Below, piece by piece: positions 10,419-46,300 of a stretch of DNA of 64,000 bases. Position numbers and translations under genes: made by a program. Source of the DNA: an uncultured Methanosarcinaceae archaeon (lineage in GTDB: Archaea; Halobacteriota; Methanosarcinia; Methanosarcinales; Methanosarcinaceae); the NCBI GenBank assembly GCA_963727895.1, contig CAVSHT010000005.1, forward strand, positions 160,001-224,000. The letters are read 5' to 3'. The notes below the pieces were generated by a model that was not told the origin of the DNA, did no database searches, and saw nothing but the letters and a program-made list of their open reading frames with translations. The stretch's first letter is position 1, and every line of letters begins with the position of its first letter.

Positions 10419-10429
10419 ATTTGTAATTC

Positions 10430-11539: not shown

Positions 11540-12199
11540 ATGGCTCATATACATTTAGAAGACGGCTCTTTTTCCCTTCAATGGATCTCCATATGGTGGA
11601 TTCTTTCGATAGCTTTAGTCTGCCTTTGTATATACTGGATGAAAAAGGTGAATAAAAGCGATGACAATAAAGTGTTAACTATAGCAGGAATGTGCACTGC
11701 GGCTTCATTTGCGATTTTTCAGGTCAATATTCCTTTGTTTGGGGGTGTACACATGAATCTAACACCTCTTATAGGCATATTAGTGGGTCCTGCAGTTGGA
11801 GGAATAATTGTATTCATAGTGAATATATTATCTGCTGCAATAGGACATGGTGGATGGGGAATGATTGGAGCGAATGTTCTAGTCAATCTAACTGAAGTTT
11901 CAGTTGCCTATTTCACATATCGTGGACTTGCCAGAGCCAAATTGAGCTCTTTTTCAAGAGCCGGTATTGCTACTCTGGCAGGATTGTTATTTGGTAATGT
12001 AACTATGATAATCGTAATCCTGGTTTCAGGAATCCAGGGAGTAACGCAGAGCCGCATGGATATACTTTATGGGCTTTCTCTCCTTGCAGGAGTCAATATG
12101 GGAGTTGCTGTAATTGAAGCTGTGCTTACTGGATATGTAGTTTCGTACTTGCAAAAAGTCAGACCGGATATGCTTCAGGAGGATGAGTTTCGTGTATGA
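11540..12199 (+). CDS. cbiM: ECF Co/Ni S component, CbiM/NikM family
   Basis: N-terminal HIHLEDG, GVHMNL and GHGG motifs. Confidence 0.85.
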   Translation: MAHIHLEDGSFSLQWISIWWILSIALVCLCIYWMKKVNKSDDNKVLTIAGMCTAASFAIFQVNIPLFGGVHMNLTPLIGILVGPAVGGIIVFIVNILSAAIGHGGWGMIGANVLVNLTEVSVAYFTYRGLARAKLSSFSRAGIATLAGLLFGNVTMIIVILVSGIQGVTQSRMDILYGLSLLAGVNMGVAVIEAVLTGYVVSYLQKVRPDMLQEDEFRV

Positions 12200-12458
12200 A
12201 ATAGACCGAAAAAAAAGTATGCTTCTGTTTGGGGTTTTGATCGTAGCTGTTTCAGGATTAAGCTTGATTGCTTACCATGTCTCAGGTCATATGGGCATAG
12301 AAGAAAGGTTTAATAGTGCTGTTGGAATTAAAGCAGAACCAGAGGACGAAGGACCGTCTGGAATATTTGGATTTAATATTGAGGGCAATGTATTATATTA
12401 TGAGATCATCCTCACCATTCTTATAGTAATATGCCTGATTATTTATATCAAAAAGTAA
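12183..12458 (+). CDS. Two-TM auxiliary ECF component (CbiN/NikN-like)
   Basis: Two TM helices around a hydrophilic loop; overlaps the cbiM end. Confidence 0.65.
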   Translation: MSFVYEIDRKKSMLLFGVLIVAVSGLSLIAYHVSGHMGIEERFNSAVGIKAEPEDEGPSGIFGFNIEGNVLYYEIILTILIVICLIIYIKK

Positions 12459-12498
12459 AACAATGTAATCTATAGCTTAAGAATAATTTCAATAAAGT

Positions 12499-13131
12499 GG
12501 TATTGTTACTTAAATATATCTAGTTATTTATTTCTGTATTTCATCAATAGAATAACCGAGTACTTTAGCATTTCAAGACTTTTTGTATAACACTTTGTCT
12601 TTCGTCTCAATCTTGCTAGAAAATGCCTCAATATGCTGTTATATCCTTCAACAGTATACGTTTCTGCTTTGGATTGAGTATGGATCTTTTCTGGAAGAAC
12701 CTCTGCATATGCTCTCCAGTGATCGGTCATCACTTCTCCAATCTCTTTTTTCTTCAATTTTTTTCAGAGTTGTTGTCCAGTTTCTGTTCCTCTGCTACCA
12801 AAAGAGCAATTGATGAACTTTTTCCCAATTCTATCAATAGCAATCCAGATCCAGCAATATTTATTTTGTCACCGATGTAAGTGTGCATTTCATCCATTTC
12901 AACAATAGATATCTCATTTTCACTTTTTAGGTCCTCTAACTTCTGACCAAATTCCTTTATCCATTTTTGGACAGAAACATGACTTACCCCTAAAACTCTT
13001 CCTATTGAGCGAAAGCCCAATCCTTCAAGATAGAGTTGTAAAGCCTGTCTTTTTACAGAAGCGGAAAAAGCAGTTGATTTTAGCTCTACTGTATAGTTAT
13101 AGCCACAATCAGAGCATTTGTACCGTTGACG
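12499..13131 (-). mobile_element. IS1-family element, 5'-truncated
   Basis: InsA/InsB-like ORFs 12754-13134 and 12524-12757. IR GGTATTGTTA at 12499. Near-identical to 41282-42021, but the frameshift A-run is interrupted (AAAATAAA). Confidence 0.9.
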
Positions 13132-25117: not shown

Positions 25118-25996
25118 TTACTTTTTTACCGGAACAAAACCGACTTCACTTACTATTTTCTGTCCCTTTGCACTCAGCACAAAGTCAATGAACTCTGTTG
25201 TAAGATTTGAAGAAGATTTCCCATTATTATAGAAGTTAAGAGCTCTTGAAAGCGGATATGTGTCATTGAGGATGCTTTTGGCAGTTGGATACACGTAACC
25301 TTTTCCATTGTTCAGGCTTAATGCCTTTGTTTTTTTGTTGAGATATGCAAAGCCAATGTACCCGATTGCATTGGAGTTTTTAGAGACCACAGTAACTATT
25401 TCTTCATTAGTAGACTCGGTGATGACATCAGATCGATATTTATCCCCTTGCATAACGTCTTTCTGGAAGTCTGCATAAGTTCCTGAATTTTTGTCTCTAG
25501 CGATAACGGAAATAGTTTTGTTTATACCACCAACTTGCTTCCAGTTACTGATGCTCCCATTGTAAATACCGCGCAACTGATTAAAGGTAAGCTTAGAAAC
25601 TTTATTTGCAGGGTTTACTATTAGTGTAATGCCGTCATAAGAAATGACATGCTTCACTGTATTAATTCCTTTTGCTTTAGCAGATTTAATCTCTTGGGCT
25701 GTCATTTCTCTGGATGCGCTAGCGATATTTACTGTGCTATTTATGAATGCATTGATTCCAACAGTAGATCCACCACCAGTAACTGATATAATTTTTCCAG
25801 AATTTTCCTTCATGAATTCTTTAGCTTCAGCCTGTGCAAGAGGCAGGATTGTATCAGAGCCTTTCACAGAAATGTTCTCTGTCACATGAGTGGTAGACTC
25901 CAATACAGGAGTTGCTGCACTACATCCAATTTCCAGAAACACAAATCCTATTACCAGTAATATAAGGAGTGTGTGACCTTTTAATTTATTTATCAT
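25118..25996 (-). CDS. pstS: Phosphate ABC transporter substrate-binding protein (orphan)
   Basis: KGSDT, GGGSTVG, ASASR, RDKNSGT, IGYIG and YPLSRAL motifs; probable start MINKLKG. Confidence 0.9.
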   Translation of the reverse strand: MINKLKGHTLLILLVIGFVFLEIGCSAATPVLESTTHVTENISVKGSDTILPLAQAEAKEFMKENSGKIISVTGGGSTVGINAFINSTVNIASASREMTAQEIKSAKAKGINTVKHVISYDGITLIVNPANKVSKLTFNQLRGIYNGSISNWKQVGGINKTISVIARDKNSGTYADFQKDVMQGDKYRSDVITESTNEEIVTVVSKNSNAIGYIGFAYLNKKTKALSLNNGKGYVYPTAKSILNDTYPLSRALNFYNNGKSSSNLTTEFIDFVLSAKGQKIVSEVGFVPVKK

Positions 25997-26226
25997 TTTA
26001 CCTATTCTCCATTTACCTACTAAAAATTTGTTTAATATATATACATTAAATTGTTTAAATATACAGTATAACATTTACAAAACGGATATATAATTATTCT
26101 CGTTTTAGACAATAGAGTTGTACATATATATATAGAGTATTTAGGAAATATAAAACATATTAATTGTATTATAAAAATACATATAAAAAGGGAGTTATAT
26201 TATGAAAATTAAAAAAGGATATATCA

Positions 26227-27375: not shown

Positions 27376-29988
27376 TCAGGTAAATAGTTTATACATTCCT
27401 TCGTAGAAGATGTTGTTCTCTTGATACAAATTTTTTATTGCATGTTCAATTTTCTGTCTAAACTCATCACTTTGGACCTTTGCCCAGACTTCCGGGAAGG
27501 TATCGAGTAATGTCTGGAGTTCTTCTTCCCTGTAGGCCTTGTAGGCTTCTACTCCCTTAAGACCTTCAGAAACTTTCTTTTTTCCGAAATCTTTTCTTTC
27601 TTCTGAAAGGCTCCAGTCTCCAGTTTGCAGATATGACCCCATTAAGTCTATTGCAACCATAGCGTCGTGCAAGTCTCCAAGGTGATCCTGCAAAGCTGTG
27701 ACTTCTTTGATCATTATATCTGCTTCCTTTCCCAACACGTCTCCAAAGAACTCAAGTGTATAACGTAGTCCTTTGGATGCAATTCTCAACCTATGAAGTC
27801 TCTCTATAGAGACATGTGGTCCTTCTACCCATTCGGAATAGGCACTGATGTCTGCGAAACGGGCATAGAGGATGGAAGGAAGTACATCCCTTACTCTATA
27901 TGGTAGTGCATCATGTTTTGTATTTGTTGTGGGCAGAGCCCAAGATTCAGAAACAGCGAGAACATCTGAGAAGTCATTTTTGAAATTGGCGTATCTTTCA
28001 CTTTTCAGATAAGTGGTCATGTTTTTCCTGGCTTTTTTTCTCGCTTCAGTGAGAATCATAAAGAGGGGATCAAGATCATGTTCATTTTCAGGAGGCAATT
28101 TTTTAAGATATTCTTCAGCTTTCTCCTTAAAAACATCTAGATCCCTGACATCACTGAATGCCGAAAGAGTACTTTTTAGTCCTTCCAGGTAAGGTTTAAG
28201 CTTTTTAGAATCTAAGTATGCTTCAAAGACCTTTGCAGCAGCTCTCATCCTGCGAATTGCAACCCTCATATCATGCAGATCTTCTATACTTTTTCCCTTT
28301 CGAGTTCCTTTCTCGTGAGCAAGCATTCTAGCAAATTGTCGGGAAAAAACCCTGTTAGCTACCATAGCCATTGAATCTTCAGGTCTAACTACAAATGTCA
28401 GGTCTTCATTCTCTTTTTTGTTTTCTTTCTTTTTTTCATTTTCTCCATTAATTTCCTCTATTCTCTTTTCAATTATTTCGGCTTCATCTATCTTTTTCTT
28501 AGATATAAAGGAGAGTTTGGTACCAAAAAGATACTCCCAGAGCTCGTCTTTCTTTTCTGCTCTTTTTACTGCTTTTTCTGTATCCTGCCCAAAAATCTCT
28601 ACTTCAACTGCTCCCTCTACCTGTCTAATTCTGTCTGGTAGAAGTCTCCAGTTGCCGTTTTCAAGGATTCCCGCGATTCGGAGAAAAGAAGCGAGAATAA
28701 GAGCTTTGTTTTTGATTTCTGGAGGTAACATGATATTTGATTCTTCAAAAAATGAAGAAAGGTTCTTTATTTCGATTTTGGGAGACTGAAGCTCCATTAT
28801 AAGAGCAAGCATCCTAAGTTCGTAGAGCTCTAATTCTTTTAGGGGATGGGTCAGGAGAATTTCCTTACCAATCTTGGATTTTTCTTCCGGGAAAACCGAG
28901 CTTCCGATCTCTTGGAGGAAAGCTGCAAGGCCTAGTATTTTTCTCTCTTTCTGCCCTAACCTATGGTAGGTAAAAAGTCCATCAAAAAGTATGAATGCAT
29001 TATTCCTGGTCTTTTCTGCCTTCTCTTCATCTGCTACATAGAGATCAAACAGGGTCTCAAGAGTCCACTCTTTGAAACCTATATTTTCCTGGCTTTTGCC
29101 CAGGGTGTAGCGCCCGGCATGGAAATGAAATTCTTTTGGCCCATTATTTTTAGATCTAAATGGGAAAATGGAAAGTCTTTCTTTTTCAAATCGGGAGTAC
29201 AAAGTTTCGATTTCTTGTTCAGGAACTTTTAGAAGAAGGCTCACTTCTGCTGTATTTAAGCCATTTTCAAGTGAAAGGAGAATTTTGGCCTGCTTTCCAT
29301 ATATATCTTCCTGGTCTGCAAGCTGCAGACAAAAAGCTCTTTCCCTGAAGCTCAAAAGGATTTTTTCCTGCATATTCTCTTTGAAGAGAAGAGCTCTCTC
29401 AAATTTAGAAAAGGGATCTTTTACAAGCTGGTAATTTCCTAGCAGGTATTCCGAAATAGCCTGCAAATCTTGACTGGTTCCATCAGTCTTTAATTCAATT
29501 TCAACTTCGTTATAGAGCTTTTCTTTATTTCCACTTTTAAGGCTCACATGATCCAGAGAAAATTCAGCTATATGTTTCTCCCCAAGTTTCACTTGGCGTA
29601 AAGCTCTTTTTTGTTCGAGTTTTAGGAATGGGAGCAGAGTAAAGCCCAGGCTAAGTTCTAAAATCATATTTTTTATTTTGGCATCGGAACATTCAAATAC
29701 AGAAGCTCCTTCTGGTAGGAAACTGATATATTCTTCTCTCGTGTGTACCCCATCTTCGAATCCCCCTAGGCTTTTGATAGTCAAGAATTGTCCTTCTTTT
29801 CCCATCTCTTTCCGCAGCCGTAGAAAATAACCTTCAGCCATTAAAGCAAGTTTTTCTGTGTCTAAAAAAGTGTCTTCAATAAGCTGTACTGAAGATTCAG
29901 AAAGGGAATAACTTTCCAGTTGAGATGATGCTTCAAGGGTTTGAAAATCCGCTTCATTTATCATGAAAAACTTTGATTCAATTTCCAT
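27376..29988 (-). CDS. CYTH + HTH-like + degenerate Ppx-type HD + CHAD multidomain protein
   Basis: N-terminal EIESK (ExExK). CHAD motifs LHDMRVAIRRMRA, LHRLRIASKGLRY and LQDHLGDLHD. Central LAAFLQEIG. Confidence 0.85.
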   Translation of the reverse strand: MEIESKFFMINEADFQTLEASSQLESYSLSESSVQLIEDTFLDTEKLALMAEGYFLRLRKEMGKEGQFLTIKSLGGFEDGVHTREEYISFLPEGASVFECSDAKIKNMILELSLGFTLLPFLKLEQKRALRQVKLGEKHIAEFSLDHVSLKSGNKEKLYNEVEIELKTDGTSQDLQAISEYLLGNYQLVKDPFSKFERALLFKENMQEKILLSFRERAFCLQLADQEDIYGKQAKILLSLENGLNTAEVSLLLKVPEQEIETLYSRFEKERLSIFPFRSKNNGPKEFHFHAGRYTLGKSQENIGFKEWTLETLFDLYVADEEKAEKTRNNAFILFDGLFTYHRLGQKERKILGLAAFLQEIGSSVFPEEKSKIGKEILLTHPLKELELYELRMLALIMELQSPKIEIKNLSSFFEESNIMLPPEIKNKALILASFLRIAGILENGNWRLLPDRIRQVEGAVEVEIFGQDTEKAVKRAEKKDELWEYLFGTKLSFISKKKIDEAEIIEKRIEEINGENEKKKENKKENEDLTFVVRPEDSMAMVANRVFSRQFARMLAHEKGTRKGKSIEDLHDMRVAIRRMRAAAKVFEAYLDSKKLKPYLEGLKSTLSAFSDVRDLDVFKEKAEEYLKKLPPENEHDLDPLFMILTEARKKARKNMTTYLKSERYANFKNDFSDVLAVSESWALPTTNTKHDALPYRVRDVLPSILYARFADISAYSEWVEGPHVSIERLHRLRIASKGLRYTLEFFGDVLGKEADIMIKEVTALQDHLGDLHDAMVAIDLMGSYLQTGDWSLSEERKDFGKKKVSEGLKGVEAYKAYREEELQTLLDTFPEVWAKVQSDEFRQKIEHAIKNLYQENNIFYEGMYKLFT

Positions 29989-31971: not shown

Positions 31972-33125
31972 TTAATCAAGTTTTTCAAAGAGATTTGGAT
32001 GCCTTTCTTTTAACTTTATGAATAGTTTTTCATCTAATTTTACATTATAAAGTGTTTTTACATTTGAAAGCTGGTCAATTAATAAATGTTGAGCCCCTTC
32101 CAGATTTGCGCCCTTAAATTTAGCCCCTTGAAGATTAGCATTTCTAAAGTTAACCCTTTGGAGGTCAGCTCCATTAAGGTTAGCCCCTTTAAGGTTAGCT
32201 CTTTGAAAGTTAACACCCTCAAGTTTAGCTTTTATAAGATTAGCTTCTTGAAGGTCAGCTCCCTGTAGATTAGCTCTTTGAAGCTTGGCTCTTATAAGTT
32301 TAGCTTTCACAAGTTTAGCTTTTATAAGTTTAGCTCCTTTGAGTTTTGCCTCTTCAAAGTTAGCTTCCTCACATTTAGCCTCCCTGAAATTTGCTTCTTT
32401 AAGTTTAGCTTTTTCAAGGTTAGCTTTTCTAAGATCAGCTCCTTTAAGGTTAGCCTTTCTAAGATCAGCTTCTTTAAGGTTAGCTTCCTGAAGATTAGCT
32501 TTCTACGTCCTTGATAGCTCCTAGCTGCTCTTTGAAAGTTAGCTTCTTCAAGTTCAGATCCTTGAAGGTTAGCTCCTTGAAGGTTAGCTTTTTCAAGACC
32601 AGATTTTTACCTTGAAGGTTAGCCCCCTGCAGATTAACTTTTTCAAGATCTGCTCCTTGAAGATTTGCCTCTTGAAGATTTGCCTCTTGAAGATTTGCCT
32701 CTTGAAGATCAACTCCACAAAATGTAGCTCCTTGAAGTTTAGCTCTTTCAAGGTTTGCTTCTATAAATTCAGTCCTTTGCAGATTCGTTTCTTGCATATC
32801 AGCATCTTGTAGATTAGCTCCTTGCAGATTAGCTCCTTGCAGATTGTGAGATTGCTTTTTTAAGATTGACCCCTTGAAGGTCAGCTCCCTTAAGATTAGC
32901 TTCTTGAAGTTTAGCCCCCTTAAGATTAGCGTCTTTAAAATTAGCTCCTTGAAGGTCAGTTACCTGAAGATTCGCTTTCTCAAGGTTAGCTCCTTTAAAG
33001 TTAGTACCTTTGAGATTTGAACCCATAAAATTTGCCATTTCAAGATTAGCTTCTATAAAGTCGGTTCCTTCGAGATTAGATCCTCGAAGATCTTTTTTAT
33101 CATTTTCGTCCATAAAATCACTCAT
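31972..33125 (-). pseudogene. Pentapeptide-repeat protein broken by three frameshifts
   Basis: A(N/D)LxG repeats continue across frames. Breaks at about 32845, 32600 and 32500-32525. Confidence 0.85.
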
Positions 33126-33256
33126 TCAAACTTAAATAAACAGAGTTTTGTAATTAACTTGATTTGATAAATTATCCCAGTAAAATATATATAAATTAGC
33201 GCTAATTAACATTAATAATCTCTGATAATACCTTATTCTTACCTCGATTTAATTTA

Positions 33257-33367
33257 GAGCTTATCTCAAACTCATTTTTGCTCTCAATTATCAGGATTAT
33301 TTGGGATTGTAGAAAATAACTCGCAAATTTATATAATTTAAGAAGAAACTTTGTTTTGGATAAGCTC
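33257..33367. mobile_element. IS5-type MITE family F relative
   Basis: GAGCTTATCTCAAAC…GTTTTGGATAAGCTC. Confidence 0.7.
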
Positions 33368-33545
33368 TTACAGCAACTTAAAAATTAAAGCAACAGAGCT
33401 TCATGAATTTAAACATAAATAATAAAAATTTTAAAATTGTTACTTAAAAAAAGAAGTAATGTGCATTGAAAGATTATATCTGCATATATCAGACATTACT
33501 TACTAACATATGCTTTTTTGATTTTATTTGTGTTTTATCTTAAAT

Positions 33546-33884
33546 CTAGTTGGTGATTTGACTCTCAATTTCAGAATAAGTTTTTGCATATTCATCTTGT
33601 AATGCGGTATATTCATTGAGGGCCATTTCAAGTTCCAACCTTATTAACTTACATTTAGCTTTTTTTATTAAAGCTTTATCTATTGCAATTTTGTCAAAAT
33701 TTCCAATCTCAGTAGACAACTTTTTTATTTCTTTCTTTGATAAGAGTTTGTTTTCCTTTGCTTTCTTTATAAGACTTTTTTTATTTCCTTTTGTAGTATT
33801 TGCCTTATCTACGATCTCTTCAAGTTTTTCAATATTTGATTTGAGTACACTGATTTTCTCTGTTATTTTAGTTCCTTCTGTCAT
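33546..33884 (-). CDS. Hypothetical Lys-rich helical protein
   Basis: 112-aa ORF with AAGGGA RBS. Confidence 0.55.
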   Translation of the reverse strand: MTEGTKITEKISVLKSNIEKLEEIVDKANTTKGNKKSLIKKAKENKLLSKKEIKKLSTEIGNFDKIAIDKALIKKAKCKLIRLELEMALNEYTALQDEYAKTYSEIESQITN

Positions 33885-34054
33885 CTTATCCCTTCTAATT
33901 GATATCCTGCTACTTTATCTACACTCTTATTACTAAAAAGTAAAAATAAAACAACATAGTCTAAATATTCATTTGGCAATTAAAAGTCCTTACATTAGTT
34001 GCTCAGTTAAATAAGTGATATTTTTAAATTTACAGATACTCAATTTTCTAAAGC

Positions 34055-34276
34055 TCATTCAACTACAAGCCAAAAGGTAACCCAGCAGAAACTCCACCAA
34101 ATCAAAGTACCTGCTATCCCACAAGTAACTATCTTCCACGCAGATATGTCTGTATTCATTGTTGCAAATGCTATTACTGCCAATGGCAGTACAATCACAA
34201 ATATAATAGCGAAAACCTCTAAGCTATTTCTAACAGTTTTTATTACTGATGTTGTTACACTATCCTTTACCTCCAT
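34055..34276 (-). CDS. Small two-TM membrane protein
   Basis: Two hydrophobic segments; purine-rich upstream sequence. Confidence 0.55.
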   Translation of the reverse strand: MEVKDSVTTSVIKTVRNSLEVFAIIFVIVLPLAVIAFATMNTDISAWKIVTCGIAGTLIWWSFCWVTFWLVVE

Positions 34277-34351
34277 AATACCACTTCCATATGGATTTGT
34301 TGAAATAAAATAAACAGATATTAAAAATTATAACTTTCAATTATTAGATCA

Positions 34352-34870
34352 TTATAATAGAGAAGGGTATCTCATTTTTAGTTGTACTAGGAGTTCTTTG
34401 TCTATTTTTGCATTGCGAAGTGTTTTTACTTTAGACAACTGATCAATTGTTAATTGGTGAATTCCTAGTAGGTTAGCTTCCTCCATATCAGCCATTTTAA
34501 GGTTTGCTCCTTGAAGATTAGATCCTGCAAGGTTTGCCATGAAAAGATAAGCTCCCTCTAAATTAGCTTCTTCTAGCTGGCTCTTTATTAATTCGGCTCC
34601 TTCAAGATGAACGTCTATTAATTTAGCTTCTCTAATTTGAGCTCTAGAGAGAAAAGCTCCTCTCAGATTAGCTTTTATAAGATTAGCTCCCTCTAAATTA
34701 GCCATTTCAAGGTGAGCTTCTTTAAGATTAGCCTCTTCGAGATTAGCTTCTTTAAGATTAGCTCCCATAAGGTCAGCTCTTACAAGATTAGCTTTTTTAA
34801 GTATCTTTTTTTCAAGGTTAGCGTCTCTGAGATTAGCTTCACTTATTTCAACCCCTTGAAGAATTGTCAT
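34352..34870 (-). CDS. Pentapeptide-repeat protein (intact)
   Basis: ANLxxA repeats. The C-terminal cap LTIDQLSKVKTL is shared with the pseudogene at 31972. GGAGGA RBS. Confidence 0.9.
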   Translation of the reverse strand: MTILQGVEISEANLRDANLEKKILKKANLVRADLMGANLKEANLEEANLKEAHLEMANLEGANLIKANLRGAFLSRAQIREAKLIDVHLEGAELIKSQLEEANLEGAYLFMANLAGSNLQGANLKMADMEEANLLGIHQLTIDQLSKVKTLRNAKIDKELLVQLKMRYPSLL

Positions 34871-35595: not shown

Positions 35596-37569
35596 ATGGT
35601 TGAAAAAAAATCGATAGTGAGGGAACTTGGAGAAGAGGAGCTCCTTCTTCCTGAGCTTGTGAACTCTGCTCTCAATGCAAACGACAAAATCAAATATTAC
35701 TTTACTCTCCTGCAAACTGCCAGAGATAAAGCAGAAAATCCACAGCTTGATTTTCCTTCTTTAAGAACCGAAAGGGAAAACGCAGGAGAAGAAGACACAA
35801 AGTTTGACAGGATTATTCCTGAAACCCTGAAAAAAGGGCATGGCACTTACGTTATTCCTTTCGCCGGAAAAATTATCTCCAGATTTTGGATCTGCATGGA
35901 CGAAATGATGAAACCTCTGCTTGCTACAGGCAGAGCTGAAGGAAAGGAATATGAGGCAAGATTAGAAAGATTAAGATCTTCCCTAACCAAAATTGAGGAA
36001 GAGATTTCGGCAAGAGAATCCGGAATTCTGAAAGGAGATTTCATAAGAGATCTAACTTCTGGAGACCGAGAAAAGGGTGACAGCCTCCACATTCTTGTCA
36101 TGGACGTCCACAAAGCCTTAAACAAAATACAGGAGGAGCTTGCGGTTGAAAATCTCAATGGGGCAAAGGTCTATCTGATAGCAGAAGAGGATAGGGAGCT
36201 GATAATTGCCTTCATGTCGGGAGTAAACCGGACTTTTCCCCTGAAATTCGAACACCCAGGGCTTGGGACAACCGCAACCCGTACGGCAGGCAAGCTTGTA
36301 ATCCAGAACGATATAGGAGAGACACAAGCCCATATACTTGTGATCAATGTCAGGGAGCTTGAGGCATCAGTTACCTGTACCGACGTTCATTTGCAAAGGC
36401 TGCTTTTTTTCCAGAGTCTTTTTGAGGAAAAAGTGATGTCTTGGGCAGATACGGTCTCAAAGCCTGCTGGTGAGAAGTTTGAGGACAAACTTTACCACCT
36501 TTCAGTGGGACGCTTCAAGGCAAAGGACAGAGACGAGTTAAAGAGCTTTCTGACTTTTCTAGGTTCTAAAATCGTTTTTTTGATCGACTGGAATCGTGCC
36601 AGGAAAAGCCTCAGGAATTTCATGCGTAATACAGACTGCATAAAAGTTCTCCACTGGGCAGCTGAAAAGGAATATGGACACAGGGCATTCCTGATACTGG
36701 GGGGAGAACAACTTATTTTTGGAGCTCTTGAACTTGCTTACAGAGCACCTCTTCCCTATGGAGAGCAGCTCTATCAGATAATTGGAAGGGAAAGGACAAT
36801 AGAGTATTTCGAGTGGGTCTTGCAGAGGGCGTCAAAGGGGCTGCTTGCGGGAGAACCGCCTCTTCTAATTAAGGATGAGATAAGAGCTGAGCTTCTTAGA
36901 TATTTCCATTCTGCAGAGCAAGATATTATGGAGATCTGCTCAGAACATGCATCTTTGATCGTAGAAACCGCAGGAGTTATCCGAGACTCTTTTTTCTATA
37001 TTACTTACACAGGAGACCCAAACTTTGTCCTCAGGAACTTAAAGAGGGCAAAAGGCTGGGAAAGTCAGGCCGACGAGCTTGTAAACAAGATCCGAACTAT
37101 TTCAAAAAGAATTGAAAATGCGGAATTCTTTGAAAAACTGATCTTTCATATGGATGACGTTATTGACGCCCTTGAAGATGTTGCCTTTTATATCACTCTT
37201 ATCCCTTCAGTCAATATATCCCGGAAGATTCTGGAAAGCCTCGAAAAGATGGCAGGAATAGTCCTCAAAAGCAGCCGAGAGTTTTTGAAAATTGTTTACT
37301 CTTACCAGTGTAGTACTCGGATCTGCACCCTTAATGAAATGCAGGCATTTTTCGGGTCTACAGCGCAGGTCATTAGCCTAGAAAGAGTCTGTGACGAGGC
37401 TTTTAGGGAGGCAAACAGGGTAATAGTTGAAGATAGCACCGATTTTAAAGAAGCCATACTTGCCCGCGATATTTCAAAAAAAATAGAAGAAGCTTCAAAT
37501 TTCCTGATGCTTGCAGCCTTTACAATCCGTGAAAGGGCTTTTGAGGTACACATCTGGGAGGGACATTGA
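35596..37569 (+). CDS. Large uncharacterised protein with C-terminal DUF47/PhoU-like helical domain
   Basis: WESQADELV…MDDVIDALEDVA and SLERVCDEAFR…IEEASN repeats. Uncharacterised N-terminal region with LKFEHPGLGTTATR. ATG 35572 is an alternative start. Confidence 0.7.
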   Translation: MVEKKSIVRELGEEELLLPELVNSALNANDKIKYYFTLLQTARDKAENPQLDFPSLRTERENAGEEDTKFDRIIPETLKKGHGTYVIPFAGKIISRFWICMDEMMKPLLATGRAEGKEYEARLERLRSSLTKIEEEISARESGILKGDFIRDLTSGDREKGDSLHILVMDVHKALNKIQEELAVENLNGAKVYLIAEEDRELIIAFMSGVNRTFPLKFEHPGLGTTATRTAGKLVIQNDIGETQAHILVINVRELEASVTCTDVHLQRLLFFQSLFEEKVMSWADTVSKPAGEKFEDKLYHLSVGRFKAKDRDELKSFLTFLGSKIVFLIDWNRARKSLRNFMRNTDCIKVLHWAAEKEYGHRAFLILGGEQLIFGALELAYRAPLPYGEQLYQIIGRERTIEYFEWVLQRASKGLLAGEPPLLIKDEIRAELLRYFHSAEQDIMEICSEHASLIVETAGVIRDSFFYITYTGDPNFVLRNLKRAKGWESQADELVNKIRTISKRIENAEFFEKLIFHMDDVIDALEDVAFYITLIPSVNISRKILESLEKMAGIVLKSSREFLKIVYSYQCSTRICTLNEMQAFFGSTAQVISLERVCDEAFREANRVIVEDSTDFKEAILARDISKKIEEASNFLMLAAFTIRERAFEVHIWEGH

Positions 37570-37570
37570 A

Positions 37571-39184
37571 GTGCCTGAAAACATTGAGGGAGCTGAAAAA
37601 AAGATAATGGAAGCAAGGATTCTTGAATTCGGAAACGGAAAGGGAGAGTATGCACCCAAGGAAGCCTTTGGGGATAAAGGTTCGATCCTTATAGCTATGT
37701 CTTCCATGGGTATCCCAGTACCCCCTGGTTTTGTCCTGAACGTCTCGGTATGTGAAGATTATTTCAAAAATTCCAGGCAGCTTCCCGAGGATCTTCCTGG
37801 ACTCCTCAGAAAGGGAATTCTGTTCCTAGAAAATGTAACCGGAAATATTTTTGGGGGTTCTCCTCCCCTGATGGTTTCGATCAGATCAGGGGCTGCTGCT
37901 TCCATGCCAGGTTCTATGGAAACTCTCCTGAACGTGGGACTTTCCAGGGATGTAGTAAGGTCTCTCATTGCCAGGACAGGGAATCCCAGTTTCGCCTGGG
38001 ATTCGTATCGGAGACTAATAGAGGGATTTGGGAGAGTAGTTTTTTCCCACGATTCCTCTCTCTATCAGGGCTTGCTGAACTCTTCAATTGAGGATGCTGG
38101 AGTTTTGGAAGAAAAAGAGCTGGATTACATAGAGTTGAGAGAACTTGCAGGGAATTATGAACGGCTTTTCTTTGAAGAAAGCCGGAGACCTTTCCCAGAG
38201 GATATATACGAGCAACTTGAACTTGCTGTCAGAGCAGTGCTTGATTCTTGGATGAGCCCAAGAGCAAAAGAGTATCGGAAAATTCACAACATAAAGGGAA
38301 TCAGAGGCACGGCAGTTACGGTACAAGCCATGGTTTTCGGAAATATGAGCATGAACTCAGGTGCCGGGATCTATTTTACCCGGAGTCCATGGACAGGGGA
38401 AAAACTGCCAGTTATCGATTTTAGGTTCGAAGCTCAGGGAGAGGACGTAGTCTCAGGCTCAAGGGCAGGAACGTCAGGAATTGAGCTTAAAACCGTATTT
38501 CCTGCTGTTTACAGTGAACTTGAAGGCATAGGGGAAAAGCTCGAAATCCATTTTCGGGATATGCAGGATATAGAATTTACCGTTGAAGAGGGAAAACTCT
38601 ACATTCTCCAGAGCCGCAGAGGAAAACGTTCATCTCTGGCAGCCCTGAGAATCGCAGTCGACCTTGAGAAAAAAGGGCTGATTTCCTCAAGCGAGGCTCT
38701 GGAAAAGCTGGAAGGGATAGACCTTAATTCTATTTCAGTGCAGAAAATCAGAACTGACAAACCTCCCCTAGCAAAAGGTGACTCTGCCTCAACCGGAGTC
38801 GCCATAGGGAAGATTGCATTCAGCAGTGAGAACGCAAAAATCTATGCTTCTGAGACTACAAAAGCTGTAATCCTGGTCCGGGAAACTCCTTCACCTGACG
38901 ACATCTCGGGAATCCATGTATCTGCAGGTTTCCTAACCACAAGAGGTGCCAGAACTGCCCATGCAGCCGTTGTAGCCCGCCAGATGGGAAAAGTCTGTAT
39001 TGTCAACTGTCAGGACCTTAAGCTGTATCCTAGAGATCGGAAATGCAGAATAGGGAAAAAGGAATTCCAGGAGGGAGACATAATCAGTCTGGATGGGGCA
39101 AGCGGAGAGATATATGAAGGTGAAGTTGAGGTCATATCCGAAAGACCTGTGAAATTGCTTGAAATCATTCAAGCGTGGAAATAG
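37571..39184 (+). CDS. Truncated PPDK-like protein (ATP-grasp plus phospho-His domain, no PEP/pyruvate barrel)
   Basis: Motifs VPPGF, VSIRSGA, QAMVFGN, AQGEDVVSG, DMQDIEFT and GARTAHAAVVAR; about 537 aa. GTG start follows the upstream TGA with a 1-nt gap. Confidence 0.85.
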   Translation: MPENIEGAEKKIMEARILEFGNGKGEYAPKEAFGDKGSILIAMSSMGIPVPPGFVLNVSVCEDYFKNSRQLPEDLPGLLRKGILFLENVTGNIFGGSPPLMVSIRSGAAASMPGSMETLLNVGLSRDVVRSLIARTGNPSFAWDSYRRLIEGFGRVVFSHDSSLYQGLLNSSIEDAGVLEEKELDYIELRELAGNYERLFFEESRRPFPEDIYEQLELAVRAVLDSWMSPRAKEYRKIHNIKGIRGTAVTVQAMVFGNMSMNSGAGIYFTRSPWTGEKLPVIDFRFEAQGEDVVSGSRAGTSGIELKTVFPAVYSELEGIGEKLEIHFRDMQDIEFTVEEGKLYILQSRRGKRSSLAALRIAVDLEKKGLISSSEALEKLEGIDLNSISVQKIRTDKPPLAKGDSASTGVAIGKIAFSSENAKIYASETTKAVILVRETPSPDDISGIHVSAGFLTTRGARTAHAAVVARQMGKVCIVNCQDLKLYPRDRKCRIGKKEFQEGDIISLDGASGEIYEGEVEVISERPVKLLEIIQAWK

Positions 39185-39233
39185 GAAATATCTACCAGCA
39201 AAAGAGGTAACTATAAGGGAGAGGGAAAAAGCC

Positions 39234-39596
39234 ATGAAACCAGAGATAGATTCAACCAGTTTCGGCTCAATTATAGTAAAAAATAAGCCGTTTGAGCATG
39301 ATATCCTTATACGTATGAGTGGGCAGATAGAAAAACGCAGGAAAAAGCTTTCGAAAAAAATATATGGAACGTCCCATAAAATCTCGCTTGCAGAGGCAAA
39401 ATATATCTATGAAAAGGGAGCAGAGAAAATAATTATCGGCACTGGCCAAACTGGGTATGTTGAACTTTCAAAAAAAGCCAAAAAGTTTTTTGAAGAGAAA
39501 GACTGTAAAACAAAGCTTCTTCCCACTCAAAAAGCAATAAAACTCTGGAACAGAAGCGAAGGAAAGATAATTGCAATGTTTCATGTTACCTGCTGA
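39234..39596 (+). CDS. Mth938/DUF498-like domain protein
   Basis: IDSTSFGSI, IIIGTGQTG and FHVTC C-terminus; GAGAGGGA RBS. Confidence 0.85.
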   Translation: MKPEIDSTSFGSIIVKNKPFEHDILIRMSGQIEKRRKKLSKKIYGTSHKISLAEAKYIYEKGAEKIIIGTGQTGYVELSKKAKKFFEEKDCKTKLLPTQKAIKLWNRSEGKIIAMFHVTC

Positions 39597-39614: not shown

Positions 39615-39846
39615 GAGCCTATCCGAAAAGTCCTGCTGCTCTGAAAGTTATCCATGCACATGCTAAATGAAGCATAGCAAGGTAATTCTCAATATTTTCC
39701 CATCTTATTAGCAGTCTTCTGAATCTGTTTATCCAAGAATGTGTCCTTTCTACAACCCATCTTCTTGCTCTAAACCCTGGAATCTCTATTCTTATTTTTT
39801 CTTCTCCCCGGCTCTTTATATGGGCAGTATAACCATAATCTTTAAC
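39615..39846 (-). mobile_element. IS5-family transposase 3' remnant
   Basis: Near-identical to 19971-20206; end GAGCCTATCCGAAAAG. Confidence 0.85.
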
Positions 39847-40630
39847 GGTTCCGTTGCAAAAAATCTTAGAATAAGCCTGTAAATCTATGAATAATGAACA
39901 AAAGTTAAAATATTCAAAAAGATATGTCAATATTATAGAACTATTCCAAATAATTGATAATATATTTAGCTTCATTAAAGCCAGAGTAATTTAGATCCTT
40001 TATTTATTTTTTTTTGGCTCAGTTTCAAAAATCTAATTTTTTCAGGATTTCTTTAGATACGAACCTTTTGACTTAAAACGTTCGGATTTTAGATGAAATT
40101 TTGCAGATTTTTCGATCCTATTCTACAAGAATAAACAATAAAAACGAACCTTTTTCTATTATGTTCATATATGCTTGTATATCAATTTTAGGAATAATAT
40201 AAGAAAAGCAAATACTTTTGATCAAAAAGTTGATCTTGTGGCTGCAAGATATAACCTGCAGCCTTGTCTGTCTGTAAGAGGGCTCCACAACTCGATTTTT
40301 CAAGGAAGTGGTTTTTAGAAGCTATGATGAAAATAAGATTTATTGTGGTTATATCAGGATTCAAGTAGTTTTAGAATCGAGTCATTAGAACCTTCTAAAT
40401 ATAGATTTAATTTTAAGATTATATATCTTTTCGATATATTCAATATAGTGAAATTGTCATATATTTATTGAATATACTGAAAGTCCTCAATAAAACCAAT
40501 TTTACAAAATATTCGGGTTCTGGTGCAAAAAATTTCAGAATAAGCATGTAAATATATGGAGAATGAACAAAAGTCAAAATATTTTAAATTTATCAATATT
40601 ACAGAACTATTCCAAATAATTAATTGATTA
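39847..40630. mobile_element. Mosaic of family A MITE pieces (39847, 40516) and dispersed repeats
   Basis: GGTTCCGTTGCAAAA and GGTTCTGGTGCAAAA starts; matches to 17781 onward and 26637 onward. Confidence 0.7.
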
Positions 40631-41281
40631 CTGGTATTTTGATGGCAGTTTTGTAAATCATAATTGACTATGTGTTTCTTACTTTTTTTAGCTCTTAACG
40701 AATGAGTTATCGATAGGAAAAAATTTTTACCCAAAAATGAAATGGGCTTTCTGATATTTAATTTTCATATATGCATGGTATTTTGTATTCCATATTATCT
40801 GGAATGAATCTGAGCTCAAACACATAGCTCTAATTAGCCGATATCGAAAATTTTCTTTGAGTGAACAAAATTGGATAAAATTTGAAGAAAATCCTTAACT
40901 TTTGGACACTTACATTAATCCCAAATTTCTAGTAGTAAGCTCAAAAGGTATGTTTCCATTGTAATATCTTGGCGTAGCCTCCAATATTTAGTGCTATTGG
41001 GCAATAGTCTCTCGAATCCCCCTTCTAAGAATTCCCCATTCTATGAGCCTCTTTTCGATGTCCCTCATTTCGTAATTTGTAAAAGAAAGGCTCTGATAAT
41101 GTTTAATAAAGCAACAATAACATAAAAATATTGTTTTTTTAGATAATATCTGCTTCAAAACTTGAGATTTTACTGAAAATGTTCAGAAAAACGCAACATA
41201 TTGACCAAAATGTTGACTAGACTTTAGGAGATCCACATAAACTCAATTACCGGAGCCAAAACGAATATGATTAAAAAAGGA

Positions 41282-42021
41282 GGTATTGATACTTAAACAT
41301 AGTTATATACTATTAGAAAGTATATTTCTTCATGAACTGCCCCAGATGCAATAGTTCTAATCACAAAAAGAACGGTATAGTTGGTGGTCGTCAACGCTAC
41401 AAATGCCATGATTGTGGATATAACTATACAGTAGAGCTAAAATCAACTGCTTTTTCCGCCTCTGTCAAAAAACAGGCTTTACAACTTTACCTTGAAGGAT
41501 TGGGCTTTCGTTCAATAGGAAGAGTTTTAGGGGTGAATCATGTTTCTGCCCAAAAATGGATCAAGAAATTTGGTCAAGAGTGAGAGAACCTAAAAAGTGA
41601 AAGTGAGATATCTATTGTTGAAATGGATGAAATGCACACTTACATAGGTAACAAAAAAAATATTGCTGGATCTGGATTGCTATTGATAGAATTGGGAAAA
41701 AGTTCATCAATTGCTCTTTTGGCATCAGAGGAACGGAAACTGGAAAACTACTCTGGGAAAAATTGAAGAAAAAAAAGATTGGAGAAGTGATGACAGATCA
41801 CTGGAGAGCATATGCAGAGTTTCTTCCAGAAAAGATCCATACTCAATCCAAAGCAGAAACGTATACTGTTGAAGGATATAACAGCATATTGAAGCATTTT
41901 CTAGCAAGATTGAGACGAAAGACAAAGTGTTATACAAAAAGTCTTGAAATGCTAAAGTACTCGGTTATTCTATTGATGAAATATAGAAATAAAGAGTTAA
42001 CTATATCTAGTTAACAATACC
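41282..42021 (+). mobile_element. IS1-family element, full length but with a nonsense codon
   Basis: IRs GGTATTGATA…TAACAATACC. InsA starts MNCPRC, TGA at 41581, A8 slippery run at 41653-41660, then InsB. No target duplication seen. Confidence 0.92.
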
Positions 42022-42194
42022 CCATTTAATTTTGTAAGTCGTGAGTATGTTCTTATTTTTCCTAATTCGCTGACATATGTAAAGTTGCTTTTACATATAT
42101 GAATTTTATTTTCAAAAACAGGCTGTGCGCGCTGATTCTTTTCAGCGAAATCTATATATTCGTTACCTACAGATATATTAAGAATAGCATTCAT
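42022..42194 (-). pseudogene. Hypothetical gene truncated by IS1
   Basis: AGGTGA RBS before ATG 42194; the frame runs into the IS end. Confidence 0.45.
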
Positions 42195-42287
42195 TTTATA
42201 ATCACCTACTTTCGTTTCGCTTTGCAGGATTCTAGGCTTGGGAAAACTTTTGAATCTTGTGAAGCAGACGATTATAATATTCTTTTT

Positions 42288-42431
42288 TCAAATGTTTAGC
42301 GCCGCTAATATAACGTTTCTTAAGAATGTTGCTTGATCCATGCTAGAATCTTTCAATTTCATGACTTCCAAATAGTCGGGGAAATCTAAAGAAACGCACA
42401 CGACCGCTTTATTATTTCTCACTTGTGGCAT
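42288..42431 (-). CDS. Small CopG/RHH-like protein, 47 aa (not in ORF track)
   Basis: AAGGAGA RBS; MPQVRNNKAVVCVSLDFPDYLEVMKLKDSSMDQATFLRNVILAALNI (beta-alpha-alpha pattern). Confidence 0.55.
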   Translation of the reverse strand: MPQVRNNKAVVCVSLDFPDYLEVMKLKDSSMDQATFLRNVILAALNI

Positions 42432-42714
42432 TATATTTTCTCCTTTTGCGTCAAACTATATTCATATCTTTAACTTTACTTAATTTATTATTTTAGTTAC
42501 TATAATATTATAGTATTGTTTTAGTATTTAAACCTAATTATTAAGTATATAAACACATGCTGTAAACCCCCTTCTAAATAACATTGTAAATTAGTAAACT
42601 TTTTAGCGGCATCTTTGCATAATATATAAAAATGTCGAGGCCCGAAAAATCAGTAACTGTAATATGCTATTTAACATTTTCGAAACAGCGCAGAGTTTTT
42701 GTTGCAAAAAGTGA

Positions 42715-43980
42715 CTACTTTTCCATGTCTAGGAACCATTGTGTTATTCGTGCATTTGTTGCTTTTTTATTTTTTAGATTTTCGCTGAAGTCCCTACCCG
42801 ACCTCTTTTTTTCCTCTGCCACATCCCCCTCGGTTGTTGTTAGTATTTTTAAAACGTCATATTTTATCTCTTTCAATTCATTTCGTGTGACAATTTGATT
42901 TTCGAGTTCGGCACGTAAAATATCATTTTCACGTCTTATTTCCTGATACTCTTTACTTATTGAAATGTCTAAATCTTTCTGAATCGTTAAAAAAGGAACA
43001 AACTTTTTATATATCTCCTTTAATTTTTCAGGTTGTGCTTGGAAGTAGGCTTCCTGCGTCTGATCTAGTTTGTGCCCCATTAAAAACTCAGTAAAGAAAC
43101 TATCTGCACCTGCATTGAGCAGTGCTGAATTGAAGTATTTTCGGACAGCATGTGCCCCTATATAATTCCATTGATTCAATCCCGTGTTTTTCCCTGCTTT
43201 TTCTACAATTGATCTGTATACCTGATTAATTAAAGGGCTGGTTAGTTTTTGAATCTCTTCGTCTTTACTTGTCTCATACTTAGGTGACACTAACTGTTTA
43301 ATGAATAGGTAGCTATTTTCTGTAACTCTTTGTTTTCTGAGGGCAATCATTTTCTCTTTCTTACGAGTCTTAGGCTTTCTGTTTCTGTAATCAAGATACT
43401 CAAGAACCACTTTTGAAGCTTCAGGTGTGAAAAAAGTTATAAAGTCGACTCTCGTTTTAACTCTCCTTATGTGTAATGTTGTAATTCCTGTATCGGGGTC
43501 GTAACCGTTTTTAAAATCGGCTATTTTCAGATTACACAGTTCGATAGCTGAGAGTCCTGAACTGGCTCCCGCAAGCACTATTGCCTTTTCAATAGGCTCA
43601 CACATTTTTAAAATATCTTGCATATCTTCCTTACTAGGAACTCTTAAATTTTCTATCTTAGTATGCGGACGGCTGCCCCCTCTTTTCATTTTTGGAATTT
43701 CAATATCATAAAATTGATAGAAACTTTTAACACCTCCAAGTCTATTTTTAACAGTATACTCCGACATTCCGCTATCCTGTAGATGTTTTTTGAAACTGAT
43801 CAAATATCGCTTAATTGATCGCCTGCGCATCATCAGACCTGATTTAATTTCATCCTCAGCTTCCTCAATTAATTCTTCAGGCGTCTTACCATGCAAATAA
43901 GCATCAATTGTGTTTCCCCTGTCAAAATTATCCAGCCACTCTATTACTAAGGGATCTTTTCTCAAATCCTCTAACTTTAT
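42715..43980 (-). CDS. Tyrosine recombinase/integrase
   Basis: HAVRK…LMGH…AYF catalytic box, RRVKT, C-terminal coiled coil. Start uncertain (ATA 43980 or TTG 43965). Confidence 0.85.
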   Translation of the reverse strand: MKLEDLRKDPLVIEWLDNFDRGNTIDAYLHGKTPEELIEEAEDEIKSGLMMRRRSIKRYLISFKKHLQDSGMSEYTVKNRLGGVKSFYQFYDIEIPKMKRGGSRPHTKIENLRVPSKEDMQDILKMCEPIEKAIVLAGASSGLSAIELCNLKIADFKNGYDPDTGITTLHIRRVKTRVDFITFFTPEASKVVLEYLDYRNRKPKTRKKEKMIALRKQRVTENSYLFIKQLVSPKYETSKDEEIQKLTSPLINQVYRSIVEKAGKNTGLNQWNYIGAHAVRKYFNSALLNAGADSFFTEFLMGHKLDQTQEAYFQAQPEKLKEIYKKFVPFLTIQKDLDISISKEYQEIRRENDILRAELENQIVTRNELKEIKYDVLKILTTTEGDVAEEKKRSGRDFSENLKNKKATNARITQWFLDMEK

Positions 43981-44694: not shown

Positions 44695-46300
44695 TTAATT
44701 ATGACAGCACAACCCTATTCTTGAACCCACAAGCCTTTTTGTATACTCATCAGAAGGTGAGAGCATCACATCGTGAGAATTTTCCGTCTCTACAATCTTT
44801 CCATAATTCATAACGGCTATCCTGTCAGCAATCTTCAGTGTCAGGGAGAGATCATGTGAAATATATATCATTGCAAACCCTCTCCTGTTCTGAAGGCCCT
44901 TTAAAAGACGCAATATATTTGCAGAGGTTGAAACATCCAGAGCCGAAGTTATCTCATCGGCAATAAGGAGTTTTGGCTCCATAACCATTGCTCTTGCAAG
45001 TGCAACCCTCTGCCTCAGCCCACCGCTGAGTTCACCACAATATTTGCTGAGGAAATTGTTAGTACTGGGAAGATGAACAAGTTCAAGGGCACTTTTAACC
45101 ATTTGCAGTCTATCTCCATTGGAACCTATCTTATTGATATAAAGAGGCTTCTTTGACTGCATCAATAACGGTAAACCTATTGCTGGTTGAACTGAACGGG
45201 TCTTGGAGTACTATCTGAATGCCATTGAGCCTGCTTCCGTAGTTTCCCTTGCCAACACTCCCACCCATAAACAGTACATCTCCGCGCTCGGGCCTTATCA
45301 CATTTGCAAGGATATGGGCAAGGGTTGACTTTCCCGAACCGATCTGGCCTACAATTGCAAGAACCTCTCCTTCCATCACTTCCAGATTAACATTATCAAC
45401 TGCCTGAGGATATCTTCTATTAGGCAGACAATATCAAAACTCAGGTTTCTGGCTTCCAGAACGTCTGCTATGCCACCTCTATGGCATGCAATTTTCCTTC
45501 CATTTCCTATCGGCATCAGTACCGGAAAACTTTACTGCAGATATCTATTTTTTGAGTACATCTCGGGCTGAAAGGACAGCCTTTAAATTCATTCTCAGCA
45601 GGTAAATCTCCGGGAATTCCCCATAAATCTTTATAAACGAAATATCCGGGGTCGAGTGGACAAGTCCCCTTGTATAAGGATGACGAGGAGATACGAGAAT
45701 ATCCCTTACAGGTCCTGTTTCAACAGTTATTCCTGAATACATAACAGCAATCCTGGATGCCACAGAAGATACAAAAGTGATATCATGAGAGATCATTAAC
45801 ATCGTATACCCGTTCTTCTTTTGAAGGTCGACCAGAAGGTCCCTGATTTCCTTTCGGGTAAATGCATCAAGGGCAGAAGTAATTTCATCGAGAATCAGTA
45901 ATTTCGGGTCGCATGAAAGAGCCATTGCCAGAAGAAACCTCTGCCTCATACCTCCAGAAAGCTGATGCGGATATGAATCCATCCATTTGGGATCAAGGCC
46001 AACCGTCCTGAACAGATTCACATATTTACTCTGTGCTTTCTCGGGGCTTATATCAAGGTGCTTTATCATCGGTTCTCTTACCTGAACGCCCACTTTCATA
46101 ACAGGGTTCAGCACGTCAAGACTGTTCTGAAAAACTATTGCAATATCCTTCCATCTTAATTTGTCCATTTCAGGTTCAGGCAAAGAAGAAATCAGCTCAT
46201 CCCTGTAAAAAATCTCACCGGAAATAGATGTATTTTCTGGCAAAAGCCCCATAATCCCGAGAGCAACAGTGGTCTTGCCACTTCCTGATTCTCCAACAAT
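44695..46300 (-). pseudogene. Two-domain peptide/nickel ABC ATPase (DppD/F-like), frameshifted and 5'-truncated
   Basis: Three ORF pieces carrying GESGSGKT, YPHQLSGGMRQR, GSGKST and ELSGGLRQR. No permease genes adjacent. Confidence 0.85.

Follow-up and report, generated by a model that had tools for sequence, protein, structure and literature searches.

A barrel-less PPDK homologue paired with a PhoU-like partner protein: a candidate two-part phosphotransferase of archaea and bacteria

The dikinase family is small, and with every new acceptor module has come a new reaction, the acceptors including pyruvate, glucan, rifampin and phenols. In PPDK (PDB: 1dik/1kbl, 5jvj) an ATP-grasp domain and a swivelling His domain are combined with a PEP/pyruvate TIM barrel, and phenylphosphate synthase belongs with the two-component and multidomain small-molecule dikinases. 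Excerpts of the published accounts of other members describe rifampin phosphotransferase (RPH) as a dikinase with a swapped acceptor domain (PMC4844700), HpeHI as an example of the two-component small-molecule dikinases, with modules on different polypeptides (PMC12167813), and VadK (Rv1127c) as a barrel-less PPDK that autophosphorylates on His422 of its swivel using ATP and Mg, regulates the methylcitrate cycle and has a tightly binding operon partner (PMC13400623). Here we describe three intact genes, termed A, B and C, which lie on the plus strand at 35596-39596 of a 64,000-nt stretch of DNA from an uncultured Methanosarcinaceae archaeon (the whole stretch is called the window, and positions are those of the stretch). 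PPDK, VadK, the two-component dikinases and the PhoU/DUF47 folds are already known; new here are the A-B pair as a distinct dikinase lineage and its recurring company of polyphosphate genes. No description of the pair was found in a literature search that did not extend to supplementary files, and the word "dikinase" has 0 occurrences in PMC6864096.

We read A and B as the two parts of a dikinase-type phosphotransferase, fused in some organisms, in which A would supply the acceptor site and which would act in the metabolism of inorganic phosphate (Pi), pyrophosphate (PPi) or polyphosphate (polyP); on the comparative evidence assembled below, we give this reading about an even chance of being right. 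The features of the locus on which it draws are the following, with residue numbers of A in the 665-aa numbering.

35596..37569, plus strand: gene A, encoding a 657-aa protein; the frame is open from ATG 35572 (665 aa), with the likely start at ATG 35596
35596..36882, plus strand: N-terminal region of A, residues 9-437, without a Pfam family; modelled
36244..36333, plus strand: motifs KFEHPGLG (residues 225-232) and QNDIGETQAH (residues 245-254) of A
36883..37551, plus strand: C-terminal PhoU-like/DUF47-like helical bundle of A, residues 438-660
37607..39184, plus strand: gene B, encoding a 525-aa barrel-less PPDK homologue; open reading frame (ORF) listed as 37511..39184
38954..38962, plus strand: codons of T450-A451-H452 of B, by alignment the PPDK catalytic His and neighbouring Thr
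39234..39596, plus strand: gene C, encoding a 120-aa Mth938/DUF498 protein; ORF listed as 39159..39596

The homologues of A, which are ~647 aa long, begin at the residue encoded at 35596 (MVEKKS), and this makes the 657-aa product likelier than the 665-aa one. Similarly, the ORF of B is listed from TTG 37511, and all its orthologues begin at the equivalent of ATG 37607, the stop codon being 39182-39184; orthologues of C begin at ATG 39234. With these starts the intergenic gaps are 37 bp between A and B and 49 bp between B and C, in agreement with the close spacing that had been reported in a first-pass annotation made from the letters of the stretch.

The coupling of A to B, which that annotation had proposed from the single locus, is conserved across taxa. 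A survey of gene neighbourhoods covered 107 loci, comprising 20 from reference genomes, 6 regions of relatives, 80 metagenome loci and the window itself. B lies immediately downstream of A on the same strand in all 20 reference-genome loci, and follows A in 95 of the 96 loci that were testable by virtue of having at least 400 bp of DNA downstream of A; these come from both archaea and bacteria, and the gap ranges from 3 to 238 bp. A search of longer proteins with A as the query recovered, in addition, 104 natural A-B fusions of 1175-1243 aa, a length that leaves no room for a barrel. All 104 carry precomputed matches to PF01326 and PF00391 and cover 76-98% of A, and those with named sources are mostly from Solirubrobacteraceae. 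A surveyed locus from Thermoleophilia (L021) is itself a fusion, with a 1210-aa frame that has no stop between the halves. Among the A-B loci no third gene is conserved across all clades. Prediction of a complex between full-length A and residues 340-525 of B gave a score of 0.00 twice, in runs without controls, and carries no weight in either direction.

Three individual cases may be recorded beside the survey. A Thermoleophilia genome with an A-B fusion has a further 1391-aa open frame with a PPDK_N-type match (G201:C4:158549-159895, minus strand). The B orthologue of one metagenome-assembled genome is split into two ORFs of 365 and 173 aa (L012:7004-8632), and an A orthologue contains one in-frame TGA (G191:C95:79920-81866); the latter two may be assembly errors, pseudogenes or instances of recoding.

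Protein B combines an ATP-grasp nucleotide-binding domain with a phospho-His swivel domain. The Pfam search recovered PPDK_N (PF01326, E 1.9e-37) and the PEP-utilizers mobile domain (PF00391, E 5.4e-19) as the only two domains, with no match to PEP-utilizers_C, the TIM barrel. Against the PPDK model TIGR01828 the protein scores 547.8 bits, below the cut-off of 843.45, and matches positions 3-521 of the 865 in the profile. Pairwise alignments end at a comparable point. The genome encodes a full-length PPDK of its own (885-aa open frame, contig C2); B shares 40% identity with residues 14-527 of that protein and stops at the start of the barrel. In the 874-aa solved PPDK 5jvj B aligns to residues 3-528 (E 6.4e-122). 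The earlier observation that the protein stops at the beginning of the barrel is accordingly borne out, as is the retention of the T-x-H site, which occurs at 38945-38980 in the motif GARTAHAAVVAR (G-A-R-T-A-H-A-A-V-V-A-R). T450, H452, K24, R93, E323, Q335 and R337 are invariant in 15 B orthologues and the genome's own PPDK, and we take these positions to be the nucleotide/Mg site and the Thr453/His455 pair of Clostridium symbiosum PPDK. The 15 aligned orthologues span Methanosarcina to Geobacteraceae, Burkholderiales, Rhodomicrobium, Binatia and Thermoleophilia. Because all of them end at the same W[K/R], a recent truncation of a full-length PPDK can be ruled out, and the truncation of B is, on this alignment, ancient.

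The distinctness of B from both PPDK and the previously described barrel-less forms was also apparent in a quick maximum likelihood tree (LG+G4; unrooted, with SH-aLRT support and without bootstrap values) of 55 B sequences, 11 canonical PPDKs and 2 VadK-like short PPDKs. High-scoring segment pairs that covered fewer than 495 query residues or contained stops had been dropped earlier, and the 55 B rows were obtained from 76 by removing those at least 80% identical to a kept row. A branch with SH-aLRT 99 separates all the B sequences from the PPDKs and both VadK-like rows, and the B sequences split into an archaeal-type group of 22 rows and a bacterial group of 33 rows, with the B of the window grouping inside other Methanosarcinaceae. 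B thus has in common with PPDK the ATP-grasp domain, the swivelling His domain, the T-x-H site and the nucleotide-site residues, but differs in the absence of the PEP/pyruvate barrel, in its separate clade and in being paired or fused with A.

With VadK and other short PPDKs, B has in common the two-domain, barrel-less architecture. Nevertheless, a VadK-like protein is only 34% identical to B, has a 47-residue deletion and lacks the Thr, with GGAASH in place of the G-A-R-T-A-H of B, and the gene next to it encodes, as its partner, a winged-helix protein of 201 aa that is not related to A (profile comparison with A: probability 0.3). In the locus concerned (L116, G379:C7:164017-168576, at 1510-3680) the stop of the VadK-like short PPDK gene, which encodes 522 aa, overlaps the start of the partner gene. 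The partner gives weak winged-helix matches of the MarR/PheRS_DBD1-like kind, and is in the length class of Rv1126c, the partner of VadK in the excerpted text of PMC13400623; the terms DUF47, PhoU and polyphosphate have 0 occurrences in that paper. Against the VadK/short PPDK model NF004531 (PRK05878) B scores 421.4 bits, below the cut-off of 456, and the model is itself unspecific, with full-length PPDKs of ~890 aa passing its cut-off.

Protein A represents a large family: of 7998 scored candidates, 1783 are hits at E <= 0.001, and the typical length is ~647 aa. A profile of its N-terminal region gave 1390 representative clusters at 50% identity. Most of the best 150 of the 1390 representatives are 640-660 aa long (a few are ~1200 aa, most of the remainder are shorter, and many of these are evidently fragments), and for this reason we read the two-part architecture of A as fixed. 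Over 22 sequences at 34-83% identity there are ~80 invariant columns, and it is the N-terminal part that constitutes the best conserved portion of the protein. The two motifs that the first-pass annotation had singled out, KFEHPGLG and QNDIGETQAH, are present at the residues listed above, and H228, N246, G249, T251, A253 and H254 are invariant within them (22 and 16 sequences aligned). Invariant residues of the N-terminal part as a whole include D170, H173, D178, H180, R220, H228, T233, T234 and N246, followed by H254, D271, H273, D339, N341, R344, K345 and H370.

The same annotation had left this ~430-aa region unassigned, and so it stays: no Pfam family was found in it in the 16 members checked, and a Foldseek search with the N-terminal 440 residues gave no solved-fold match at E <= 0.001. 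Modelled alone (pLDDT 88, pTM 0.81), the region is predicted to consist of a four-helix bundle at ~21-192, an alpha/beta domain at ~193-337 and a helical part at 340-437. VIA-align related residues 21-192 to generic four-helix bundles (Z up to 10.0) and residues 202-337 to the MotA C-terminal domain (Z 7.7-8.4), both within the stated background of the tool. A search of the ESM Atlas with residues 1-440 had a best score of 0.77, to an unnamed cluster, and provided no lead. Comparison by hhalign of the four-helix bundle with a thin CHAD alignment of 4 sequences gave a probability of 0.26, and no CHAD chain was among the VIA-align matches listed for the model of A; nor was any rifampin-binding-domain chain found among its Foldseek or VIA-align matches.

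The PhoU-like bundle that had been noticed in the C-terminal part of A is weak by Pfam, with the protein of the window matching PF01865 at 17.7 bits (E 0.0024, residues 458-643) against a cut-off of 24.4, but clear by fold. The model of this part (pLDDT 84.6) aligns by VIA-align to 3l39 with Z 25.1 and rmsd 2.9 over 205/209 residues, to 2iiu with Z 22.1 and to PhoU 1t72 with Z 21.6. Foldseek likewise retrieves 3l39 (E 2.9e-4, TMt 0.82), as does an alignment profile of the C-terminus searched against the PDB (E 4.2e-4), and precomputed PF01865 hits are carried by several A homologues and most of the fusions. On the model, then, the C-terminus of A clearly adopts a PhoU-like fold. Both the helical bundle and the acidic motifs of PhoU/DUF47 proteins (3l39, 2iiu, 1t72) recur in residues 438-660, where the acidic pairs E497/D501, D532/E535 and E604/D608, and also E639, are invariant. 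Known PhoU/DUF47 members are, however, stand-alone proteins of ~200-225 aa, whereas A, at 657 aa, carries a conserved N-terminal region of 430 aa, has a dikinase fragment as its partner and, in the window, falls below the Pfam cut-off.

The suspected link of the pair to phosphate gains support from the genes beside it. Two such genes lie upstream of A in the window.

27376..29988, minus strand: CYTH + CHAD gene of 869 aa (triphosphate-tunnel and polyphosphate-binding domains), 5.6 kb upstream of A
25118..26074, minus strand: gene of a PstS-family phosphate-binding protein (TIGR02136 at 251.2 bits, cut-off 206.6), 9.5 kb upstream of A

Across the survey, polyphosphate genes (PPK1, PPK2, PPX, CHAD, CYTH) are found beside A-B in 15 of the 107 loci, which by our own grouping make up roughly ten separate lineages, and in 8 of the 29 whose flanks reach 5 kb or more on each side. 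The most elaborate arrangement, PPX - small ORF - PPK1 - CHAD - Metallophos/HD - A - B - PPK2, recurs in L032, L033, L034 and L058, and the order PPK1 - CHAD - Metallophos - PPX - A - B is seen in L046. In L030 the pair, there written B-A, is adjoined by MazE-PhoU, DUF498, a two-domain PPK2 and CYTH/Ppx-III. An orthologue of the CYTH-CHAD gene of the window immediately follows A-B in L013 and is 4.2 kb downstream of the pair in L089; CHAD is directly upstream of the pair in L056 and L093, PPX is near it in L060 and L017, and PPK2 in L086 and L100. Homologues of PstS, PhoU or NptA occur in seven loci, with PstS in L010, L045, L083 and L089. Nine bacterial loci also have, ~0.1-3 kb from A, a calcineurin-like phosphoesterase of ~448 aa with an unassigned 180-aa N-terminus; these are L017 (10392-11735), L068, L069, L076, L079, L090, L101, L104 and L105, and the gene is often divergent and just upstream of A. 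With the same polyphosphate queries, ~5 places were found in the 3.67-Mb genome to which the window belongs, two of them beside A-B or its remnant (see below), and the chance expectation for the 1.02 Mb of flanks examined is ~1.4 hits; the estimate is rough, since the density of one genome is extrapolated and related loci are not independent.

These observations can be combined into a conditional scheme. A and B would act as separate subunits here and as a single polypeptide in some bacteria. B would bind ATP in its ATP-grasp domain and load a phosphoryl group onto His452 of the swivel as PPDK does, a step suggested by its conserved residues and by the precedent of VadK. As B has no TIM barrel, the phospho-His would be delivered to a site in A, which may act through its N-terminal domain, rich in His, Asp, Arg and Lys, and its PhoU-like bundle, the two replacing the barrel as acceptor or substrate module. 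The genomic company of PPK1, PPK2, PPX, CHAD, CYTH, PstS and PhoU points to the chemistry of Pi, PPi or polyphosphate, although which acceptor is used can only be guessed; Mth938 would be an accessory in some methanogens only. In its logic the proposed system resembles HpeHI and rifampin phosphotransferase, with an ATP-grasp domain, a swivelling phospho-His and a separate acceptor-binding module. The division of labour is nonetheless different: HpeHI, in the excerpted text of PMC12167813, is split into an ATP-grasp subunit and a subunit carrying the swivel with an RPH-like substrate domain, whereas ATP-grasp and swivel are together on B and the presumed acceptor module is a separate protein, A. 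In a more specific form, A-B might be an inorganic-phosphate dikinase catalysing ATP + Pi + polyP(n) <-> AMP + PPi + polyP(n+1), with the phospho-His of B shuttling between the ATP-grasp domain and a polyP-end or Pi/PPi site formed jointly by the novel domain and the PhoU-like bundle of A; we consider this particular reaction rather improbable as it stands. If it were correct, the module would be a previously unrecognised enzyme of polyP metabolism, and, run in reverse, it would consume polyP to rebuild ATP from AMP and PPi, an energy-saving salvage for anaerobes with AMP- and PPi-forming activations, including acetate-using methanogens.

Several points weigh against the reading of A-B as an acceptor-bearing dikinase of Pi, PPi or polyP metabolism. 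The acceptor-site role of A is one that we infer, its N-terminal domain having no recognisable catalytic fold. Polyphosphate genes are present in just 15 of the 107 loci, the chance estimate applies the gene density of one genome to all the others, and many bacterial loci with long flanks are without phosphate genes (for example L021, L022, L024, L028, L044, L063, L064, L075 and L087). The one testable locus that departs from the pairing, L103, has A followed by an MFS transporter and is without B. The distribution of A is patchy: of 201 genomes sampled from the order, the present one among them, 9 carry it, as does 1 of the 27 other genomes of the genus, and the A-B module is therefore accessory and dispensable. 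In favour of the reading, portions of A, B and C are covered by contigs from RNA libraries (4 metatranscriptome runs from 2 studies, with ~1-4% differing letters), which suggests transcription in a close relative, with carry-over of DNA as a possible source; against it, no RNA contig bridges the A-B or the B-C junction, and parts of the stretch have no contig cover.

Of the other ways in which the conserved pair could be understood, one is that B is a VadK-like His kinase acting on or binding other enzymes, for instance those of polyphosphate, and that A is a subunit sensing Pi or metal and not an acceptor. PhoU proteins modulate phosphate transport and signalling, and A does end in a PhoU-like fold. 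VadK, moreover, provides in the excerpts of PMC13400623 a precedent for a regulatory barrel-less PPDK with a tightly binding operon partner. Yet the 430-aa N-terminal part of A is its most conserved portion and has a density of invariant polar residues that exceeds the needs of a sensor, B lies outside the VadK-like clade, the partner in the VadK-like locus is an unrelated 201-aa winged-helix protein, and the single-polypeptide fusions suit an enzyme at least as well; we consider such a regulated protein kinase unlikely, while taking it seriously. The first-pass annotation had proposed instead a phospho-His relay for phosphate signalling; in the form considered here, the phosphoryl group passes from B to a His of A, such as H173 or H180, and phosphorylated A signals phosphate status. 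The invariance of H173 and H180, which in the model occupy the last helix of the four-helix bundle at 21-192 in an HPt-like arrangement, would fit this proposal, and the weak structural neighbours of the bundle include CheA P1 domains (3kyj, Z 8.1; 1tqg, Z 7.9; 1i5n, Z 7.4). However, Z values of 7-10 for helical bundles are within the background described for the tool, the local sequence of A is DVHKALN, without the HxxKG-type motif of HPt domains, and the pair has no conserved neighbour that encodes an output domain or a response regulator. The interpretation given in that annotation appears partly supported, and the genomic predictions that it named all came out in its favour, but the relay itself seems to us rather improbable.

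The readiness of the family to exchange acceptor domains, as in RPH (PMC4844700) and HpeHI (PMC12167813) according to excerpts of those papers, also raises the prospect that the pair is a dikinase for an organic substrate, with A as a new substrate-binding subunit and the polyphosphate neighbours coincidental or indirect. The predominance of bacterial loci without phosphate genes would be explained in this manner. On the other hand, across clades the pair has no conserved catabolic or biosynthetic neighbour, and both the PhoU-like domain and the presence of polyP or Pi genes in roughly ten lineages favour inorganic phosphate chemistry, which leaves an organic substrate quite improbable in our estimation. 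Least credible of all, to the point of being almost negligible, is the absence of any functional link, with A and B as chance neighbours and B as a decaying PPDK fragment. The insertion sequence (IS) fragments and the integrase in the region might bring it to mind, but it is contradicted by the occurrence of B after A in 95 of 96 testable loci and by the 104 fusions, as well as by the common truncation point of 15 orthologues, the invariant catalytic residues and the separate full-length PPDK in the genome. A defence-system reading was dropped because PADLOC gave no hit for A or B; for C it gave just a sub-threshold match of 30 residues.

This widespread module brings together a conserved ATP-grasp/phospho-His engine, a 430-aa domain of unknown fold and a PhoU-like bundle. 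If the preferred reading, that of an enzyme of Pi, PPi or polyP metabolism, is right, it would be a missing player in archaeal and bacterial polyphosphate biology and would provide a first function for a large family of "hypothetical/DUF47" proteins; considered together with VadK, it would also show repeated origins of barrel-less PPDKs, with another partner in every case. The natural single-chain fusions are convenient starting points for biochemical and structural study.

Outside the window, on contig C5:259078-267820 (locus L115, ~4078-12820), the same genome has a second copy of the module in a decayed state. What survives is the C-terminal end of B (residues 388-525, 56-65% identity) together with a frameshifted Mth938; the neighbours are an intact PPK2, a GT4 glycosyltransferase and a CYTH-CHAD paralogue, which shares 87% identity with the one in the window. 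A GT4 glycosyltransferase is near the module in two Methanosarcinales genomes (L012:183-4089 and L115:6872-8065), and L012 has in addition an MGH1-like glycoside hydrolase.

The Mth938 assignment of the third gene stands, with C matching PF04430 (Mth938/DUF498) at 43.4 bits against a cut-off of 33 (E 3.8e-11), but its inclusion as a regular part of the operon does not: Mth938 is near A-B in 10 of the 107 loci, all archaeal. C accompanies A-B in a restricted set of lineages, namely some methanogens, and lies outside the conserved core. The higher GC content that had been reported for the three genes relative to their flanks is likewise real, at 0.39-0.48 across the genes against 0.26-0.35 in the immediate flanks, but not peculiar to them, in that other coding stretches of the window reach 0.43-0.45 (45000-46000). 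As intact genes elsewhere in the window also have such values, the contrast is mostly that between intact coding and decayed or intergenic DNA. Recent foreign acquisition was considered as its source and rejected, given that B nests in a Methanosarcinaceae clade in the tree.

The flanks contain transposase fragments, an integrase and several short pentapeptide-repeat ORFs. Debris of mobile elements occupies 39619-43965, directly 3' of gene C, with the following pieces.

39619-39975: DDE_Tnp_1 fragment of 117 aa, 3' of C
41332-41583 and 41763-42014: two short ORFs with IS1-type helix-turn-helix and DDE pieces
42715-43965, minus strand: gene of the phage-integrase family, 415 aa

On the other side of the locus, a run of short pentapeptide-repeat ORFs of 97-171 aa lies on the minus strand at 31972-34870, possibly as fragments of one or several longer repeat proteins; Methanosarcina sp. 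Ant1 (L013) also has a pentapeptide protein, of 284 aa, upstream of A. A PhoU-type match is found near the end of the window, at ~63264-63962 on the minus strand.

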